Shown here: positions 9,690 to 56,430 of the stretch, in pieces
Layout: every line of letters starts with the position of its first letter
Numbering within the stretch: position 1 is the stretch's first letter
From: Deltaproteobacteria bacterium
Lineage (GTDB): Bacteria > Desulfobacterota > Syntrophia > Syntrophales > Smithellaceae
DNA: 64,000 bases
Assembly: GCA_022703375.1 (NCBI GenBank)
Contig: JAKLDS010000001.1
Span: 13,540 to 77,539 of the forward strand
Direction of reading: 5' to 3'
The notes under the pieces: model-generated
Database searches by the model: none
Told to the model about the DNA's origin: nothing
What the model saw: the letters and a program-made list of their open reading frames with translations, nothing else
Made by a program: the position numbers and the translations under genes

Positions 9690-10577
9690 TCATAATGTTG
9701 CCGATCCCGATTGCCTGAACTTATGAGACACATAATCGGCAATCAGATTAAAAATTAATGTCAGTACAAAAAGCACAATACCCGTCGCGAAAAGAGCCTG
9801 ATAGTGCAGGCCGCGATACGGCGCTTCGCCCATTTCCGCGGCAATGCTTGCCGGCATGGGGCGCACCGAATCAAACAGGCTCTCCGGAATCGCCGCGGCG
9901 CCGCCCGCCACCATCAACACAACCATTGTTTCCCCAATCGCCCGGGACATCCCCAGAATGACGGCAGTGGAAATCCCGGACAGCGCGGAAGGCATGATAA
10001 CCCTGGTAATGGTTTCAAATTTTGTCGCGCCCAGCGCATAAGACGCCTCCTTGAATTCACGGGAGACGGCGTAAAGAGCGTCTTCGGAAATGCTGGAAAT
10101 GGTGGGAATAGCCATGATAGCCAGAATAACGGAAGCATTAATTATATTAAGGCCGGTCGGCAGATCGAAAGTTTCCTGCAGCCAGGGTGCGACAACAATC
10201 ATCCCGAAAAAACCGAGCACTACGGAAGGAATGCCCGCCAGAAGCTCGATTAATGATTTGAGAATCTCTTTGATGGAGCCGGGCGCAATCTCGGCAATGT
10301 AAATCGCCGAAAGGACGCCCAGCGGCACCGCTATAAGTGTGGAAAAAAAAGTTACAATAAATGATCCGACAATCAGCGGAAAGATGCCGAAGAGCGGCGG
10401 CTCAGATGTCGGATACCACTCCATGCCCAGCAGGAAATCCCGCAATGATACTTTCTGGAATATGGGCAGGCCTTCCCGGAAAAGAGAAAAGACAATCAGC
10501 GCCAGCACCAGCACGGAGACGAGCGCGAACAGGAATAAAACATATTTAATAATATTTTCTTTTATCCGCCTGGTCAT
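9690..10577 (-). CDS. pstC: Phosphate ABC transporter permease PstC
   Basis: 295-aa permease with motif EASYALGATKFET, adjacent to pstS. Confidence 0.9.
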   Translation of the reverse strand: MTRRIKENIIKYVLFLFALVSVLVLALIVFSLFREGLPIFQKVSLRDFLLGMEWYPTSEPPLFGIFPLIVGSFIVTFFSTLIAVPLGVLSAIYIAEIAPGSIKEILKSLIELLAGIPSVVLGFFGMIVVAPWLQETFDLPTGLNIINASVILAIMAIPTISSISEDALYAVSREFKEASYALGATKFETITRVIMPSALSGISTAVILGMSRAIGETMVVLMVAGGAAAIPESLFDSVRPMPASIAAEMGEAPYRGLHYQALFATGIVLFVLTLIFNLIADYVSHKFRQSGSATL

Positions 10578-10588
10578 GAGATGCTTTC

Positions 10589-11404
10589 TTATTTACCGGT
10601 TTTAATCGGCACAAACCCTTCTTTCTGGACAATTTTCTGACCTTCAGCGCTTTTTAAAAAAGCGATGAACTTGGCCACCTCTCCTTGCGGCTCGCCGTCG
10701 GTGTACATATAAAGCTCCCGGGAATACGGATATTGCTTGGATAGAGCGGTTGCGGCCGAAGCGGCAACACCGTTTACTTCCAGAGCTTTGACATTTTTAT
10801 TCAAATAACCCATCCCCGCATAGCTGATGGCATACCTGTTTTTGGCAACTGCCGTGACGACTGCGCCATTGGAAGCCAGCATCTGGGCGCGCGGTGTGAC
10901 TTTGTTTTTCTTCATGACAAAGTGATCCCAGGACTCAAAAGTGCCGGAGGATGAATCCCGGGAGATGACGACGATTTTCAGGTCGTCTCCGCCCACTTCT
11001 TTCCAGTTGGTTATCTTACCCTGATAAATCAGGCTGAGCTGATCGGTGGATAACCCCTTTACTTTGTTCTGCGGGTGAACAATCGGAATTAAAGCATCAT
11101 ATGCGACAACGTGCGCTAAAGGTTTTACCCCTTTGGCGGTGGCCAGCGCAATTTCTTCTTTCTTGATTGACCGCGAAGAGTTTCCGATGTCGCAGGTTTT
11201 ATCAATCAGGGCTTTAATTCCTTCACCCGAACCGCCGCCCGAAAGGGATATTTGCACTCCCTTGTTGGTTTTCATGTAGGCTTCCAGCGCCGCCTGAGAA
11301 ATCGGCAGTACCGTAGTAGAGCCTTTTATTACGATGGAATCAGCGGCCATGGACAAACTCGCCGTAAAAAGGACTAAAACCATACTGAATATTGTTTTCT
11401 TCAT
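10589..11404 (-). CDS. pstS: Phosphate-binding protein PstS
   Basis: 271 aa with a signal peptide and PstS-family motifs (GSTTV, SGGGSGEG, SRDSSSGT). Confidence 0.9.
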   Translation of the reverse strand: MKKTIFSMVLVLFTASLSMAADSIVIKGSTTVLPISQAALEAYMKTNKGVQISLSGGGSGEGIKALIDKTCDIGNSSRSIKKEEIALATAKGVKPLAHVVAYDALIPIVHPQNKVKGLSTDQLSLIYQGKITNWKEVGGDDLKIVVISRDSSSGTFESWDHFVMKKNKVTPRAQMLASNGAVVTAVAKNRYAISYAGMGYLNKNVKALEVNGVAASAATALSKQYPYSRELYMYTDGEPQGEVAKFIAFLKSAEGQKIVQKEGFVPIKTGK

Positions 11405-11448
11405 TTACTCCTCCTGAACTATAATTTGGGAGCAGTATATAGATTAAA

Positions 11449-21520: not shown

Positions 21521-23287
21521 GTGCGCTTCGATGACAGCAAGATTGAGGAAATTAAAAGCAGGCTGGATATTGTTGAACTCGTTTCGGAATATCTGACGCT
21601 GAAAAAAGCGGGGCGTAATTTTGTCGGATCCTGCCCTTTTCATCAGGAAAAAACACCGTCTTTTACAGTTAACCGCGAAAAACAGATTTTTTATTGTTTC
21701 GGTTGCGGCGAAGGCGGCAATGCCATAACTTTTCTGATGAAGATTGCCAATATGACTTTTCCGGAAGCCCTGAAGTCTCTGGCGGAAAAAACGGGGGTTG
21801 TTCTGCCGCCCCGGACGGCATCGCGGGAAGGCCGCGGGAAGGATTCCTTAAGGGAAAGCATCGTTGATTTAAACAGACGCGCGGCGCAGTATTACGTGCG
21901 GGAACTTTATGGGCCGGCCGGCAGGGAAGCCCGTGAATATTTGCAGAAAAGAGAAATAACCGAGGAAACAATAAATAATTTCCGGTTGGGTTATGCGCCC
22001 GAGAACTGGCGTTCTTTGACAGATTATCTGGATGGTAGCGGCTTGTCTCTGAAAATAGCCGAACAAGCCGGGCTTGTTGTGGCCGGCAAGGATGGCGGCT
22101 ACTATGACCGTTTTCGCGGCCGGTTGATATTTCCCATTGAGAATATTTTTGGCGAGGTTATTGCTTTCGGCGGCCGGATTCTGGCTAAAGGAGAACCAAA
22201 ATATCTCAATTCTCCGGAGTCGCCGGTTTATATCAAGGGTAAAAATTTATACGGTTTGGTCAAGGCGAAAGAGGAAATCAGGAAAAAGGGCTGTGCGCTG
22301 ATTGTCGAAGGTTATTTCGATTTGATTTCACTCTGGAATGCCGGTATCGGCAACGTTGTTGCCACGCTGGGAACAGCACTGACCAGAGATCATCTGGATC
22401 TTTTACGCCGTTATACGGTTGATGTTGTCGCCCTTTTTGATCCCGATGAGGCCGGGCGCAAAGCGCTGGATCGCAGTCTTGATTTATTTCTGGCTGCCGA
22501 TATGCGCGCCCGGGCGCTGATTCTGCCGGGCGAAGATGATCCCGACGACTATGTGAGAAAAAACGGGCGGGATAAACTGGAGGAACTGATTGCCGGCGCC
22601 CCGACCATCAGCGATTATTATATTGATAATGTGCTGGGGGGAGGCAAGACTTTTGAAGATAAAAAAGAAATGGCCAAGGCGGCGCTGGAATTTATCGCTA
22701 AAATCGGCGATGAAATGGAAAAGAATCTTTTTCTGAAAAGAATATCGGAAAAACTGGGAATTGAGCAGGAACTGTTAAAAAAGGAGAGTCATAGGAAAGA
22801 AAGCAGGATAAAGACCGGAGAGGCTGAAGCGGTAACGCCAAATCAGCAAGTCGGGATTGATCCGTTGGAAGTTAATTTAATCAGGCTGTTGATTGAGTAT
22901 CCTCAGAAGATAGCGCCGCTGGAAAGGGAAAATGTCTTCGATTTCTTTTTACGGCCGGAACTGAAAAAGCTGGCTTATGAAATAGCCGAGTCTTACCGGC
23001 GGCTGGGATTTGTGGATATCAATGTTATCCTGGCAGCGGCGGAAGATAGACCGCTGCGGGAAAAAATATACAAGCTCAGCATCGAAGCGCTGGCGGTTGA
23101 CGATGTAATGCTGGAGAAGATATTTGCCGATAACATAAAACAGATCAGGAAAAAATGGTATAAATATCAAAAAGGGCAGATCCAGTTTAAAATGGCGCAG
23201 GCACAGCAAAGCGGTGATGAAGCTCTGCTCAAAGAGCTGCTCAGGAAAAAAGACGAGCTGGTGAACAGAGAAAAGGAATTACGCTAG
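21521..23287 (+). CDS. dnaG: DNA primase
   Basis: GTG start, zinc finger CPFHQEKTPSFTV...CFGCGEGG, and a TOPRIM region EGYFDLISL. Confidence 0.95.
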   Translation: MRFDDSKIEEIKSRLDIVELVSEYLTLKKAGRNFVGSCPFHQEKTPSFTVNREKQIFYCFGCGEGGNAITFLMKIANMTFPEALKSLAEKTGVVLPPRTASREGRGKDSLRESIVDLNRRAAQYYVRELYGPAGREAREYLQKREITEETINNFRLGYAPENWRSLTDYLDGSGLSLKIAEQAGLVVAGKDGGYYDRFRGRLIFPIENIFGEVIAFGGRILAKGEPKYLNSPESPVYIKGKNLYGLVKAKEEIRKKGCALIVEGYFDLISLWNAGIGNVVATLGTALTRDHLDLLRRYTVDVVALFDPDEAGRKALDRSLDLFLAADMRARALILPGEDDPDDYVRKNGRDKLEELIAGAPTISDYYIDNVLGGGKTFEDKKEMAKAALEFIAKIGDEMEKNLFLKRISEKLGIEQELLKKESHRKESRIKTGEAEAVTPNQQVGIDPLEVNLIRLLIEYPQKIAPLERENVFDFFLRPELKKLAYEIAESYRRLGFVDINVILAAAEDRPLREKIYKLSIEALAVDDVMLEKIFADNIKQIRKKWYKYQKGQIQFKMAQAQQSGDEALLKELLRKKDELVNREKELR

Positions 23288-23320
23288 ACGATTATAAAAT
23301 AAATGTTCGGGAGTGAACAG

Positions 23321-25072
23321 ATGGCTAAAGAAATACAATCGGATGAATTTAAAAAATTAATTTTGCTCGGTGAAGAAAAGGGATTTTTGACGTACGACGA
23401 TGTCAATGACATGCTGCCGCCGGATGTGACGTCTTCCGATCAGATAGACGATATTATCATGATCTTCGGAGAGAAAAACATTGATATTATTGATACCGAG
23501 CAGGGTGAGAAACTGATCGTTAAAAAAACGACTGAGGACGCCGTCCTGACCAAGTTTCCGGAAAATCTTGTGCTGATGCCGATGGCCGGGAAAACCGGAG
23601 ACCCGGTAAAAATGTATTTGCGCGAAATGGGCATGGTTTCTCTGTTAAGCAGGGAAGGCGAGGTGGAAATCGCCAAGAGGATTGAAGAAGGCGCCCGCGA
23701 AACGATGTTCTCTATCTTCAGCCTGAACGTTTCCATGATGGAGGTGCTCAATATCGGCGACAAGCTGGCGACAGGGGAAATACGGATTAAAAATGTTGTG
23801 GACAATATTGAAGATGAAGAAGGATTTGTTGAAGAAGATGAGCATAAAGAAAGGGTTTTAAAGCTTATTGGCAGAATTCGTCTGTTTAACAACAGAAATG
23901 AAGTTCTTCGTGAAAAGCTCAAATCAAAAACAATGCGTCCGAAACAGCGCGAATTGCTGACAGCCGAACATGAAAAAAATATCAAAAATATTATTACCCT
24001 CTGCCGGAAGATTCGTTTCAGCAAAAAACAAAGCCATCGTTTTGTCGCCCGTTTGCGCAATTACGCCGACGAAATCGAAAGAGCGGAAAAAGTTATCAAT
24101 CAGTATAAAAAGGAAACCGGATTGACGCTGACCCAGTTGGAGAAATTATGGGTGAGGATGAAAAAATCCAAGGCCGATGAAAAGAAAGCGGCAAAGGAAG
24201 CCCGGCTTTCCGTGGAAGCGCTGAAGAAAAGCCAGCCGGCGATACTTGATGCGCAGAAGAAAATCAGGCTCATCGGCCGCGAGGTCGGCATACCCACGGC
24301 GACATTGAAGAAAGTTGTGGATACCATTGAAGAGGGTGAAAGCAAGGCAGAAACAGCCAAAAGGAAGCTGGTGGAGGCTAATTTAAGACTAGTTGTCAGC
24401 ATTGCCAAGAAATACACCAACCGCGGCCTGCAGTTTCTGGATTTGATCCAGGAGGGCAATATCGGTTTGATGAAGGCTGTTGACAAGTTCGAATACCAGC
24501 GCGGCTACAAATTTTCCACCTACGCAACCTGGTGGATCAGGCAAGCCATCACCCGCGCCATCGCCGATCAGGCCAGAACCATTCGTATTCCCGTGCACAT
24601 GATTGAAACAATCAACAAGCTGATTCGGACTTCCCGCTATCTGGTGCAGGAACTGGGTCGCGAACCTACTCCGGAAGAAATAGCCAATAAAATGGAATAT
24701 CCTCTGGAAAAGGTGCACAAAGTTCTGAAGATTGCCAAAGAGCCGATTTCTCTGGAGACCCCTATTGGGGAAGAAGAAGACAGCCATCTGGGTGATTTTA
24801 TCGAAGATAAGAAAATCATGTCTCCCTCGGAGGCGACAATCAGCATGGATCTGGCGGATCAGACGCGCAAAATTCTTGCCACGCTGACGCCTCGGGAAGA
24901 AAAGGTGCTGCGGATGCGCTTCGGCATCAGTGATCGTTTGAATACCCTTGTGGAGGAACTGGCCTCTGAGGTCAGTCCGCTGGAAATAACTGATGAAGAC
25001 GAACCGGACATCGAGGAATTACCTGTGACAAAAAAGACTAAGAATTCTTCGAAGATACGATCTGCAAAATAA
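23321..25072 (+). CDS. rpoD: RNA polymerase sigma-70 family primary-type factor with a non-canonical C-terminus
   Basis: Regions 1.1 to 4.1 are canonical ([63 protein letters not shown]; [15 protein letters not shown]). The last 47 aa (from nt 24929) show no recognisable region 4.2 HTH. ATG at 23321 is preceded by gggag. Confidence 0.85.
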
Positions 25073-25074
25073 TA

Positions 25075-25103
25075 TTGACAAGCATGGTATTTGGGTATAT
25101 CAA
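25075..25103 (+). promoter_or_regulatory. Candidate sigma-70 promoter for tRNA-Met
   Basis: TTGACA (25075-25080), a 17-nt spacer, then TATCAA (25098-25103), about 37 nt upstream of the tRNA. Confidence 0.35.
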
Positions 25104-25139: not shown

Positions 25140-25215
25140 GGGCCCATAGCTCAATTGGTAGAGCCACCGGCTCATAACCGGTAGGTCCCTGGTTCGATCC
25201 CAGGTGGGCCCACCA
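25140..25215 (+). tRNA. tRNA with anticodon CAT (elongator tRNA-Met; tRNA-Ile2/lysidine not excluded)
   Basis: Cloverleaf: acceptor GGGCCCA/TGGGCCC, anticodon stem ACCGG/CCGGT with loop CTCATAA, T-arm CCTGG-TTCGATC-CCAGG, encoded CCA. The G1-C72 pair argues against an initiator tRNA. Confidence 0.9.
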
Positions 25216-25358
25216 TATTATAATCAGAGAATAGTTATCATGAAAAAAACGTTAATCTGCAATAGATGTTCAAAGTGTGCTGTTATAAATGCCTTAAAAA
25301 TGCAGATGACGTCATCACTGCAAGGCAAGGCAGACCGGAAAGCAGGCAAAACTACTAA

Positions 25359-25390
25359 AATGCACCCATAAGAGGTGCATTTTTTTTATC
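25359..25390 (+). terminator. Rho-independent terminator
   Basis: Stem atgcacc/ggtgcat followed by tttttttt. Confidence 0.7.
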
Positions 25391-26853: not shown

Positions 26854-27051
26854 TTAATCACCTGTCTCGGCGGGTTGTTTTGCGGCAGATCCCTTCTTCG
26901 CCATTCCTTTGGCGATGGCAACGAGTACCAGAGCAATCACGATAACAACGAGTAAAGCCGAAATTACTCCCGGAAGCTCCAGCATTTTGATGCCGCCGAT
27001 TGCAGCCATACCAACGATTGCGGAAACGATACCGACGATTACACCTTTCAT
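26854..27051 (-). CDS. Small membrane protein (65 aa)
   Basis: Two hydrophobic helices. RBS ggaggaa lies upstream (minus strand). It shares a G-IVSAI-G motif with the 16558-16869 product. Confidence 0.5.
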   Translation of the reverse strand: MKGVIVGIVSAIVGMAAIGGIKMLELPGVISALLVVIVIALVLVAIAKGMAKKGSAAKQPAETGD

Positions 27052-27395
27052 TTTTTCCTCCTTCTAGTAATAGGTAATTTTCTTTGAAACGCAGATTCTC
27101 GAATATACGTAAGTGAATGTTAACTTAATTATAGTAAATGCTCACTTACATGTCAAGGTAAAATGTTGGCTGGATAAATAAACGGAATAACTGAATAATA
27201 TCAAAGAATCGTTTCTCTAAGCCTGATTACTTAAAAATGCACGATGAACGTCACTGCGGCGGTTTTGCTTTGGAATGATTTAACCTTCGGGGGCCGGAAG
27301 ATGCGGTTTAATTGCGAAAACTCTCCCGTGCAAGGATTAAATAGAAGGCGGTTGCCAAAACCAGCAAATTGTTTTGCTCTATGGTGGTCAGGATA

Positions 27396-38015: not shown

Positions 38016-38102
38016 TGGTGCCGAAGCCGGGATTTGAACCCGGACAGGCGTACACCCACTAGACCCTGAACCTAGCGCGTCTACCAATTCCGCCACTTCG
38101 GC
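38016..38102 (-). tRNA. tRNA-Leu (anticodon CAG)
   Basis: The reverse complement reads GCCGAAGTGGCGGAATTGGTAGACGCGCTAGGTTCAGGGTCTAG...GGGTTCAAATCCCGGCTTCGGCACCA. It has a long variable arm, anticodon loop TTCAGGG and an encoded CCA. Confidence 0.9.
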
Positions 38103-38211
38103 ACGCGAAGGGGTAACTATAACGATCGCGGCTTCTTGTCAAGAAAAATGAGCTTGAATTTAAGCACCAAAATGCTATGTTACCGCCCGGTTATTGACAG
38201 GGAATTAAAAT

Positions 38212-56313: not shown

Positions 56314-56328
56314 TGGCATATGATTTGC
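56314..56328 (+). promoter_or_regulatory. Sigma-54 (-24/-12) promoter
   Basis: TGGCAT-atgat-TTGCT has the exact consensus spacing of TGGCAC-N5-TTGCW. It lies about 100 nt upstream of the MBL hydrolase gene and directly downstream of the sigma-54 activator gene. Confidence 0.7.
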
Positions 56329-56430
56329 TCTTATTGGTAGACGTGTTTGTCTGGGGAAATGAAGAGTGTCAAATGGTAATTTGACATAACACAATTTAGG
56401 AACTATTTTTTGCATAGGGAGCTAGCAGAC

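Follow-up and report, generated by a model that had tools for sequence, protein, structure and literature searches.

The window, i.e. the whole 64-kb stretch of DNA that was analysed, contains a dnaG-rpoD pair with the following features:

21521–23287, + strand: dnaG (primase), the upstream member of the conserved dnaG-rpoD pair (ORF list)
23321–25072, + strand: rpoD, a group-1-type sigma factor of 583 amino acids (Pfam, NCBIfam and 80–89% identity to Smithella/Smithellaceae RpoD)
24368–24835, + strand: regions 2 and 3 (recognition of −10 and extended −10 elements, core binding), fully canonical (Pfam r2, residues 350–420; r3, residues 429–505)
24842–24928, + strand: region 4.1, two helices, kept intact; the sole part that matches Pfam Sigma70_r4
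24929–25069, + strand: tail of 47 residues, very probably the remnant of a region 4.2 that decayed in place (Pfam, own HMM, collinear alignments)
24953–25018, + strand: acidic segment of the tail, residues 545–566, with 11 Asp/Glu and no Lys/Arg (direct reading of the sequence)
25031–25069, + strand: basic C-terminal motif of 13 residues (family consensus KKxKxxSRKRAAK), which aligns with canonical RKLRHPSRSKKLK

The rpoD start was placed at position 23321, where the proteins of relatives begin (MAKEIQ), with a GGGAG Shine-Dalgarno sequence in front of it; a start at 23303, also an ATG in frame, would yield 589 amino acids. Regions 1.1 and 1.2 of group 1 sigma-70 factors are both present in the product (Pfam Sigma70_r1_1, 65.4 bits; r1_2, 47 bits), and r2 and r3 were matched with 85.6 and 105.2 bits, respectively. 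Of the NCBIfam models, the protein passes the RpoD equivalog NF004208 (610.2 bits; cut-off 555) and narrowly fails the RpoD C-terminal model TIGR02393 (340.6 bits; cut-off 354). The gene lies directly 3' of dnaG, and the initial annotation of a primary-type sigma factor at a dnaG-rpoD locus is right. The orthologous dnaG genes in related loci (L081–L086 and L088–L092) encode the Zn_ribbon_DnaG, DNAG_N and Toprim domains. The likeness to group 1 sigma-70 (RpoD/SigA) extends to the place beside dnaG and to every region from 1.1 to 4.1, the non-conserved region included. Unlike these proteins, RpoD of the Smithella type is without the helix-turn-helix of region 4.2, by which −35 recognition is defined, and the rpoD product does not possess the complete region 4 (4.1 plus 4.2) of the group. 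The absence of this helix-turn-helix had been proposed from the sequence alone and is borne out by Pfam Sigma70_r4, which scored 19.9 bits (cut-off 24.1) with a match confined to region 4.1 (profile positions 2–18 of 50, residues 519–535). Our own region-4 HMM, derived from 134 canonical sequences of the region, matches RpoD of the Smithella type at profile positions 2–42 only.

The last 47 residues read exactly as first quoted; they begin acidic and end basic. The acidic segment stands where a helix-turn-helix would have its first and its recognition helix. Where the recognition helix of canonical region 4.2 contacts DNA through Arg/Gln, the alignment shows Asp, Glu or Pro at every position. 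The statement that an acidic stretch takes the place of this helix holds, and the acidic character is kept across the Smithella-type tails. At the basic end, K571, K572, K574, K579 and R580 are conserved in ≥90% of the aligned Smithella-type sequences and K583 is invariant, and other Syntrophales retain RKLRNPSRRKxLKP. The faint echoes of region 4.2 pointed out previously are real, since phmmer found a collinear alignment between the tail and RpoD chains of known structure (7ye1_F). A frameshift does not rescue the domain, as had been concluded before: the other two frames reach a stop within 4 codons and 1 codon. The tail measures 46–49 residues (mean 46.5) in 33 aligned Smithella-type sequences. 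Its pN is 0.36 and its pS 0.75; synonymous sites are saturated, and pN was for this reason compared with pS in place of dN/dS. The excess of pS over pN, the near-fixed length and the conservation of SDR, several Glu and KK.K...RKR..K argue that the tail does not evolve neutrally. Two AF2 models of low overall quality (pLDDT 58.8 and 66.5) show the tail as coil (pLDDT ∼30) and contain no helix-turn-helix in it; the modelled tail is probably disordered.

The upstream regions are highly constrained. Within the Smithella type, the pairwise identity of regions 2 and 3 is 0.99–1.00 (pN 0.016), and a stretch of 34 residues with the canonical −10 and extended −10 contacts is invariant in the aligned sequences. 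The identity of region 4.1 in Syntrophales, 0.94–0.96, is like that in canonical lineages. Regions 1.1–4.1 are as conserved as in any primary sigma factor.

The same kind of tail was found in all of the best 120 homologues (80–100% identity), apart from the fact that a few of them end early or are frameshifted (P0057, P0063, P0093 and P0113). These homologues derive from JGI, ENA, NCBI and Logan assemblies, with contigs of up to 4.78 Mb and one other of 3.5 Mb. Syntrophales genomes with this allele that are complete or nearly so include ENA ERZ21831019 (contig ctg34076l, 4.78 Mb), ENA ERZ21878160 (contig_17), GCA_002840565.1 and GCA_002049765.1. A tail of 46–47 residues, acidic and then basic, thus recurs in more than 100 Smithella/Smithellaceae relatives from independent assemblies; its presence in related genomes had been named beforehand as the mark of a lineage-specific feature. 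The gene order his-HIT-yqeY-dnaG-rpoD-tRNA-Met-CT398-like-RNase H is conserved among the relatives as well. An assembly artefact, one of the possibilities raised initially, is refuted by the occurrence of the tail in four data sources, including the 3.5-Mb and 4.8-Mb contigs, and recurrent mis-assembly is very unlikely because more than 200 independent sequences are involved. The second possibility, a 3' end replaced or rearranged beside the tRNA gene, does not agree with a tail that is collinear with region 4.2 and of equal length, that is joined to the canonical form by graded intermediates, and that is followed by the same junction in outgroups with an intact region 4.2. Overall, there is only a negligible chance of an assembly error, of a 3' end that has become a pseudogene, or of one that an insertion or rearrangement beside tRNA-Met has replaced: the tRNA gene 67 nt downstream of the rpoD stop (tRNA genes are common integration sites) and the four truncated or frameshifted homologues speak for it, but the type, length and key residues of the tail are conserved in more than 100 independent sequences, pN lies below pS, the rpoD-promoter-tRNA junction is identical in outgroups, and no integrase, repeat or composition break is needed to explain the locus. 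The gene is a genuine, inherited, dnaG-linked primary-type rpoD of a Smithellaceae-like member of the Syntrophales.

Outside the Smithella type, region 4.2 is eroded in degrees. The tails of a further 119 homologues are divergent throughout, measure 45–53 residues and fall into several grades (types A–G); where a source name is given, it is 'Syntrophales bacterium' or 'Syntrophus sp.'. The series runs from near-intact recognition helices to the Smithella state, and Pfam r4 scores decrease stepwise from 77.1 bits (canonical) to 43.5, 36.7, ∼29, 23 and ∼19–24. Our own HMM spans the whole domain in L003 (58 bits) and L088 (55 bits) and region 4.1 alone in the Smithella type. The mean pairwise identity of region 4.2 is 0.90 in canonical lineages versus 0.48–0.49 in Syntrophales, where regions 2, 3 and 4.1 remain at 0.94–1.00. 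A sister lineage with the same synteny (L089) has a canonical region 4.2 and marks the boundary of the clade. These comparisons show that constraint on region 4.2 is relaxed throughout the Syntrophales and that the defect is not local damage; a real, lineage-wide decay of region 4.2 in place is very probable on the sequence evidence.

Whether −35 elements are still in use was judged from the promoters in the window and in related loci, first of all from the one directly downstream of rpoD:

25075–25103, + strand: tRNA-Met promoter, with TTGACA at 25075–25080, a 17-nt spacer and TATCAA at 25098–25103 (conservation across loci)
25140–25215, + strand: tRNA-Met (CAT) (ARAGORN; Rfam tRNA, 70.4 bits)
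25357–25383, no strand assigned: intrinsic-terminator-like hairpin with T-runs on both sides, which closes the tRNA-Met transcription unit (terminator scan)

The −35 box of the tRNA-Met promoter, TTGACAA, is invariant in 12/12 Syntrophales loci, and spacer positions 8–16 are unconstrained. The outgroups with intact region 4.2 have the same rpoD-promoter-tRNA-Met junction and the same TTGACA-17-TAnnAA layout. TATATC at 25096–25101 is an alternative −10 element; an altered promoter geometry with a 15-nt spacer was set aside in view of the identical 17-nt layout in the outgroups. The good TTGACA hexamers noticed earlier were found again, at 25075, 28385 and 47435. In addition, the window contains a perfect TTGACA-17-TATAAT (12/12 consensus) at 27156–27128 and several further intergenic TTGACA-N14–17-TAnnnT sites, and a conserved TTGATT/TTGCTT box lies 17 nt from a TAAATA-like hexamer upstream of hisI. 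The extended −10 motif TGn precedes 6 of 57 predicted −10-like hexamers in the upstream regions of the window (∼1/16 expected). The lineage is also rich in sigma-54 promoters and enhancer-binding proteins.

A protein that could read these boxes was searched for near rpoD. With region 4 of the E. coli and Geobacter type as query, tblastn detected no orphan region 4.2 segment in the 64-kb window, and our own HMM detected no sigma-4-like ORF besides rpoD in the six-frame ORFs of the window and 11 related loci; a second polypeptide with sigma-4 function was thus not found there. A canonical paralogue in the lineage was sought among the relatives of the closest canonical RpoD (P0123), a search that leaves room for a more distant paralogue: these relatives are orthologues from other Thermodesulfobacteriota, none of them is on a known Smithella contig, and L089 shows orthologous synteny. 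Some Syntrophales RpoDs give weak, sub-threshold helix-turn-helix matches at residues 270–350. A compensating helix-turn-helix in the non-conserved region was rejected, as this segment is collinear and of equal length in canonical sister lineages. As a lineage-specific partner, the CT398-like zinc-ribbon gene downstream of rpoD was likewise discarded; it has the same size beside canonical rpoD. In a full-text search of the literature, neither an account of a primary sigma factor without region 4.2 nor an inventory of the sigma factors of Syntrophus or Smithella came up.

We favour the following explanation as a whole, with a probability of roughly 0.55: region 4.2 has decayed, RpoD no longer sees −35 elements, and a second reader of the sigma-70 family is encoded elsewhere. 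RpoD would still bind core RNA polymerase, both through regions 2 and 3 and through the contact of region 4.1 with the β-flap, and would still recognise and melt −10 elements; it would be unable to read −35 hexamers. The last point, −35 blindness of the Smithella-type RpoD, is likely because Asp, Glu or Pro stands in place of every Arg/Gln contact of the recognition helix. By analogy with phage T4 gp33, the acidic stretch may hold upstream DNA off the flap region, and the retained basic end may provide a non-specific contact to DNA or a contact to a partner. The strict selection on TTGACA boxes in the lineage implies that another part of the genome must encode a reader of the region 4.2 type. 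Most likely, a further member of the sigma-70 family with intact region 4.2, also one of the possibilities raised initially, would serve the −35-dependent promoters; we give even odds to this reader being a second full-length sigma factor. Two observations weigh against a second sigma: none was seen in the window, the 11 related loci or the relatives of P0123, and takeover of housekeeping promoters, such as those of tRNA genes, by a paralogue should bring some relaxation to the whole of RpoD, whereas regions 2–4.1 are maximally constrained. As to −35 blindness, RpoD would be expected to lean on extended −10 elements, but the 6/57 does not represent a clear enrichment of TGn.

The combination of constrained regions 1.1–4.1, relaxation confined to region 4.2 and maintained selection on TTGACA would be fitted best by RpoD being the sole housekeeping sigma factor, with −35 elements read by a separate polypeptide. 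We nevertheless consider this unlikely. The partner could be an orphan sigma-4-like helix-turn-helix protein or another TTGACA-specific DNA-binding factor, and it could dock onto the retained region 4.1, the conserved basic C-terminus or the β-flap. The set of residues conserved in the tail, together with the RKLRNPSRRK/KKxKxxSRKRAAK motif, does resemble an interaction site, and precedents exist in T4 gp55 with gp33 (PMC2988020) and in Bacillus subtilis SigO-RsoA (PMC10141391). On the other hand, no candidate gene was found beside rpoD, in the window or in the 11 related loci, and the CT398-like gene is the same in lineages with intact region 4.2 and hence not lineage-specific. Moreover, a four-helix domain made from two chains, or two modules that compete for one flap, would be structurally awkward. 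To our knowledge, a trans-acting −35 reader of this kind is known in no bacterium. It is doubtful that housekeeping promoter recognition in Syntrophales is divided over two polypeptides, which would amount to a split primary sigma that is cellular rather than phage-encoded; RpoD would then retain binding to core, −10 recognition and its anchor on the flap (region 4.1).

Less probable still is that RpoD acts as the sole housekeeping sigma factor and is truly independent of −35 elements. Initiation would then rely on the −10, extended −10 and discriminator elements and on activators, and TTGACAA upstream of tRNA-Met would be kept as a regulator site or as a local promoter for an alternative sigma factor. 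Kumar and colleagues (1993) are reported to have found that sigma-70 of E. coli, cut off before region 4.2, can still start transcription in vitro from extended −10 promoters. The tRNA-Met promoters carry G at position −14 in 11/12 cases if the −10 element is TATAT[C/T], and the abundance of sigma-54 promoters and enhancer-binding proteins points the same way. Against this stand the TTGACA at the canonical 17 nt, in the layout of outgroups with intact region 4.2, the other intergenic TTGACA sites, the 12/12 consensus one included, the conserved box upstream of hisI and the lack of a clear TGn enrichment.

The preferred reading, a −35-blind RpoD next to another −35 reader, can be set beside known systems. 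T4 gp33 is an acidic, flap-bound mimic of sigma-4 that reads no DNA; it reduces the non-specific binding of DNA, and gp55 fused to gp33 acquires a dependence on the activator (PMC2988020). As in T4, where gp55 is sigma-2-like, the Smithella-type RpoD would combine a reader of the −10 type with a flap-proximal acidic module devoid of sequence-specific DNA binding, and the acidic tail may be a functional counterpart of gp33. The two are unrelated in sequence. The −35 element is absent from T4 late promoters but conserved in Syntrophales, and gp33 couples to the sliding clamp, a coupling for which RpoD of the Smithella type gives no hint. The truncated E. coli sigma-70 illustrates a plausible working mode, a holoenzyme without region 4.2 in which TGn compensates, but it is a laboratory construct, whereas the Smithella-type protein is a natural allele, and an enrichment of extended −10 elements is not detectable in the window. 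The genes for SigO and RsoA are adjacent, in contrast to rpoD, which has no partner gene nearby. In this system, functions of the sigma-2 and sigma-4 type reside on two polypeptides (PMC10141391), and SigO is an alternative rather than a primary-type sigma factor. Sigma-AB of Bacteroidetes and sigma-80 of Helicobacter/Campylobacter have a region 4.2 that is divergent yet keeps a folded helix-turn-helix, and the −35 consensus of their promoters is lost or changed. They share with the Smithella-type RpoD a lineage-wide departure of the primary sigma factor from canonical −35 recognition; the situation in the latter is the reverse, as the helix-turn-helix is gone and canonical TTGACA is kept.

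Among the modules with which bacteria read DNA, region 4.2 of primary sigma factors ranks with the most conserved. The −35/−10 promoter model rests on it, and so do class II activation, the action of anti-sigma factors and the binding of 6S RNA. The Syntrophales combine an eroded region 4.2, with erosion complete in the Smithella type, with maximally constrained regions 1.1–4.1 and intact −35 boxes. Their RpoD represents a natural test of the extent to which region 4.2 can be dispensed with, and of what may stand in for it. The relatives of Smithella and Syntrophus are syntrophic bacteria of environmental importance and key degraders of fatty acids and alkanes in methanogenic systems; Syntrophus species and Smithella propionica are in culture, and the question is directly testable in these organisms if they carry the decayed allele. 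The decay of region 4.2 also affects promoter prediction and automatic annotation in Syntrophales genomes. Some of the orthologues bear no more specific label than 'sigma-70 family RNA polymerase sigma factor'; failure to pass the RpoD models may be the reason.

The dnaG-linked primary-type sigma factor (RpoD) of the window was compared with Pfam and NCBIfam models. Its gene lies in the following setting.

21521..23287, forward strand: dnaG, the ORF directly before rpoD
23321..25072, forward strand: rpoD, 583 residues (an in-frame ATG at 23303 would give 6 more)
directly past the rpoD stop, forward strand: tRNA-Met promoter (TTGACAA, 17 nt, TAT/TAG-type −10)
starting 67 nt past the rpoD stop, beyond the rpoD 3' end: tRNA-Met(CAT)

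Regions 1.1, 1.2, 2 and 3 of sigma-70 were strong (Pfam). The Sigma70_r4 match, at 19.9 bits, missed the gathering score (24.1) and covered only profile positions 2–18 of 50, which is region 4.1. The protein was above the cut-off of the RpoD equivalog NF004208 (610 vs 555) and narrowly below that of TIGR02393, the RpoD C-terminal model (340.6 vs 354; both NCBIfam). The core-binding and −10-reading modules and region 4.1 are intact, and the helix-turn-helix is absent. Judged by its position and its regions 1.1 to 4.1, the protein is a group-1 sigma factor, without the region-4.2 feature that defines this family. The initial annotation had likewise described an RpoD lacking a recognisable region 4.2; its wording of the last 47 residues (the tail, 24929..25069) was exactly matched on re-reading, and no frameshift rescues the region, both alternative frames closing immediately. 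Within the 64 kb, no region-4.2 coding segment was found elsewhere by tblastn or with an HMM from 134 canonical region-4 sequences. Two AF2 models, both poor overall (mean pLDDT 58.8 and 66.5), agreed solely in showing residues ∼549–583 as coil (pLDDT ∼30) with no helix-turn-helix; canonical sequences in the alignment still did not lead these low-quality models to build one.

We take the tail to be region 4.2 decayed in place, real and lineage-wide, with a probability of roughly 0.9 on the comparisons that follow. It aligned collinearly with solved RpoD chains (phmmer); KKTKNSS pairs with RKLKHPS, and TLVEEL is among the aligned segments, so the “faint echoes” of 4.2 noticed earlier are borne out. 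In canonical sigma-70, Arg and Gln side chains contact the −35 hexamer. Because the tail is collinear with canonical 4.2, these contacts can be read as replaced: Asp, Glu and Pro stand at their positions. The acidic stretch (residues 545–566) holds 11 Asp/Glu and no Lys or Arg. The best 120 database homologues (80–100% identical; JGI, ENA, NCBI and Logan assemblies) have as named sources Smithella, Smithellaceae or ‘Deltaproteobacteria’ MAGs, on contigs of up to 4.78 Mb. Their common ending is ...RMRFGISDR, followed by a variable and strongly acidic stretch of ∼30 residues and by KKxKxxSRKRAAK, and nearly all are 582–583 residues long. This recurrence across assembly sources disposes of an assembly artefact, one option of the initial annotation.

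Eight loci of this Smithella type (with a window-like acidic-then-basic tail), read as DNA, share the order his genes-HIT-yqeY-dnaG-rpoD-tRNA-Met-CT398-like zinc-ribbon gene-RNase H. Synonymous sites are saturated between them (pS ∼0.75). The non-synonymous difference pN rises from 0.016 over regions 2 to 4.1, through 0.13 for the non-conserved region, to 0.36 for the tail. The tail thus evolves fast, yet not neutrally, because its pN stays below the saturated pS, its length is nearly fixed and residues are conserved (S537, D538, R539, several Glu, and basic residues 571, 572, 574, 579, 580 and 583). Four Smithella-type RpoDs (P0063, P0057, P0093, P0113) end early or are frameshifted, P0063 (597 aa) reading on through its frameshift into the promoter region behind rpoD. 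The tail thus tolerates truncation in assemblies, though a contig end or a sequencing error is the likely cause.

Among 1.84 billion cluster representatives, two more distant relatives turned up, P0121 and P0122 (64% and 60% identity), in which the recognition helix is recognisable but altered (DETMERAKKIEANALKKMR); of the best 150 representatives, 134 had a canonical region 4.2. With the intermediates as its seed, a profile search gave 119 further proteins, from ‘Syntrophales bacterium’ or ‘Syntrophus sp.’ where a source was named. All 119 have divergent tails of 45–53 residues in several grades, most with RKLRNPSRRKxLKP. The Sigma70_r4 score (Pfam) drops stepwise from 77.1 bits in a canonical sister lineage through 43.5, 36.7, ∼29 and 23 to ∼19–24 in the Smithella type. 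In an alignment of 142 sequences, the 4.2 segment had a mean pairwise identity of 0.90 in canonical lineages vs 0.48–0.49 in both Syntrophales groups, with regions 2, 3 and 4.1 at 0.94–1.00 in all groups. Since the intermediate P0122 lies in the same dnaG-rpoD synteny, and a sister lineage (L089) with this synteny has a fully canonical region 4.2, constraint on the region was released around the base of Syntrophales, with the window RpoD at the far end of the process. Replacement or rearrangement of the 3' end at the tRNA gene, also proposed initially, is unsupported, given the collinear tail and the graded intermediates.

Several single cases were noted. In L089 a DDE transposase (DDE_Tnp_1_4; 10042-11445, reverse strand) lies between rpoD and the tRNA-Met promoter, so this junction can take insertions with rpoD unaffected. 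A Syntrophales-clade RpoD (L002:10001-11752, G05_MAG_00005; 68% identical) has a purely acidic tail (...DDFNHDDEADDLADDYLRQDEYEQDDEE), so not every RpoD of the clade carries the basic C-terminal motif. Two Syntrophales orthologues (P0421, P0476) are named ‘sigma-70 family RNA polymerase sigma factor’, not RpoD, by the NCBI pipeline, likely because the decayed 4.2 puts them below equivalog thresholds. P0170 (L087:10001-11707, GCA_964505185.1, 482-kb contig), of an unrelated lineage with 44–45% identity to all others, has RpoD-like regions 1.1 to 4.1 and then an acidic-then-basic tail in place of 4.2 (...RLRFGITEGAEGIIERVEDEDGETEGVITFDPRALIRARMSARKRRKSSVE); its gene is not dnaG-linked and overlaps a GHMP-kinase gene at its start. 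It may be an independent erosion, in which case loss of 4.2 may recur, or a paralogue.

The tRNA-Met promoter bears on whether −35 elements are still read. Its TTGACAA is invariant in 12/12 Syntrophales loci (Smithella type and other tail grades), with the 9 spacer positions after it fully randomised and a TAT/TAG-type −10 at 17 nt. An equally placed promoter of this layout (TTGAC[A/T], 17–18 nt, TAnnnn) occurs in outgroups whose 4.2 is intact. Upstream of hisI in the window, a conserved TTGATT/TTGCTT box stands 17 nt before a TAAATA-like hexamer. The −35 hexamer is thus still under selection in Syntrophales, so that a canonical-specificity reader of region-4.2 type must still operate in these cells, in line with the earlier view that the cell reads −35 elements. 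The window RpoD itself is quite probably blind to −35, i.e. not the reader. Two further promoters were seen in the window.

27156..27128, reverse strand: 12/12 consensus TTGACA-17-TATAAT, intergenic, upstream of a 65-residue hydrophobic ORF (26854..27051, reverse strand)
38142..38137, reverse strand: TTGACA box of tRNA-Leu(CAG) (38016..38102, reverse strand), with CGT-TATAGT after the box

The perfect sigma-70 consensus is striking beside an RpoD without a −35 reader, and the tRNA-Leu layout (38142..38102) closely resembles that of the tRNA-Met promoter in a related locus (L003). Between tRNA-Met and a terminator hairpin (25357..25383) lies a 43-codon Cys-rich ORF (25240..25371, forward strand; MKKTLICNRCSKCAVINALK...) without an obvious ribosome-binding site, which is probably spurious.

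To our knowledge, departures from the canonical arrangement are of two kinds, divergent folded primary sigmas and laboratory truncations. Bacteroidetes sigma-AB and epsilonproteobacterial sigma-80 have changed promoters and, unlike the window RpoD, keep a folded helix-turn-helix; laboratory truncations of E. coli sigma-70 are active at extended −10 promoters. In a full-text literature search, no account came up of a natural primary sigma that lacks region 4.2. The role of region 4.1 on the β-flap is established. The window RpoD would form holoenzyme via regions 2 and 3 and via region 4.1 on the flap, and would initiate without contact to −35 DNA. In phage T4, gp33 is an acidic sigma-4 mimic that does not itself read DNA and that reduces non-specific binding; fusing it to gp55 gives a protein that depends on an activator (PMC2988020). 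By analogy with gp33, the acidic stretch may hold upstream DNA away from the flap region, and possible roles of the conserved basic end are non-specific DNA contact or partner contact.

As the −35 reader we favour, at about even odds, a putative second sigma-70-family protein with intact region 4.2, encoded elsewhere. A sigma-4.2-derived module is preferred because TTGACA specificity is continuous, and a second sigma because many bacteria carry group-1 or group-2 paralogues; starting from the closest canonical RpoD, a search returned orthologues of other Thermodesulfobacteriota only. The main rival, a putative trans-acting −35 reader that works together with RpoD, would better explain the maximal constraint on regions 1.1 to 4.1 with release of 4.2 only, and has precedents for split recognition in T4 gp55 with gp33 (PMC2988020) and the alternative sigma SigO-RsoA (PMC10141391). 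We consider it unlikely, as a candidate gene was absent from the window and 11 related loci (region-4 HMM), and the CT398-like gene conserved downstream is found beside canonical rpoD too. A truly −35-independent cell is more doubtful still, being hard to square with the conserved −35 boxes; nor was the TGn extended −10 clearly enriched (6/57 −10-like hexamers, picked by sequence in upstream regions).

Sigma-54-type matches in the window were not above chance (3 vs 6 expected at ≤1 mismatch). An exact one (56314..56329, forward strand; TGGCATATGATTTGCT, GG-N10-GC) lies ∼80 nt before an ORF starting at 56410. In three related loci (L081:15700-15745, L082, L085; alignment A4) a conserved sigma-54-type promoter (TGGCATATCTCGTGCAA, reverse strand) precedes an ATP-synthase-c-like gene. 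Some 200 nt beyond this promoter, a palindrome (ATGTTTTGTT...ATAAAACAT) is also conserved and is probably an enhancer-binding-protein site, and genes for sigma-54 activators and dCache sensor kinases adjoin the promoter.
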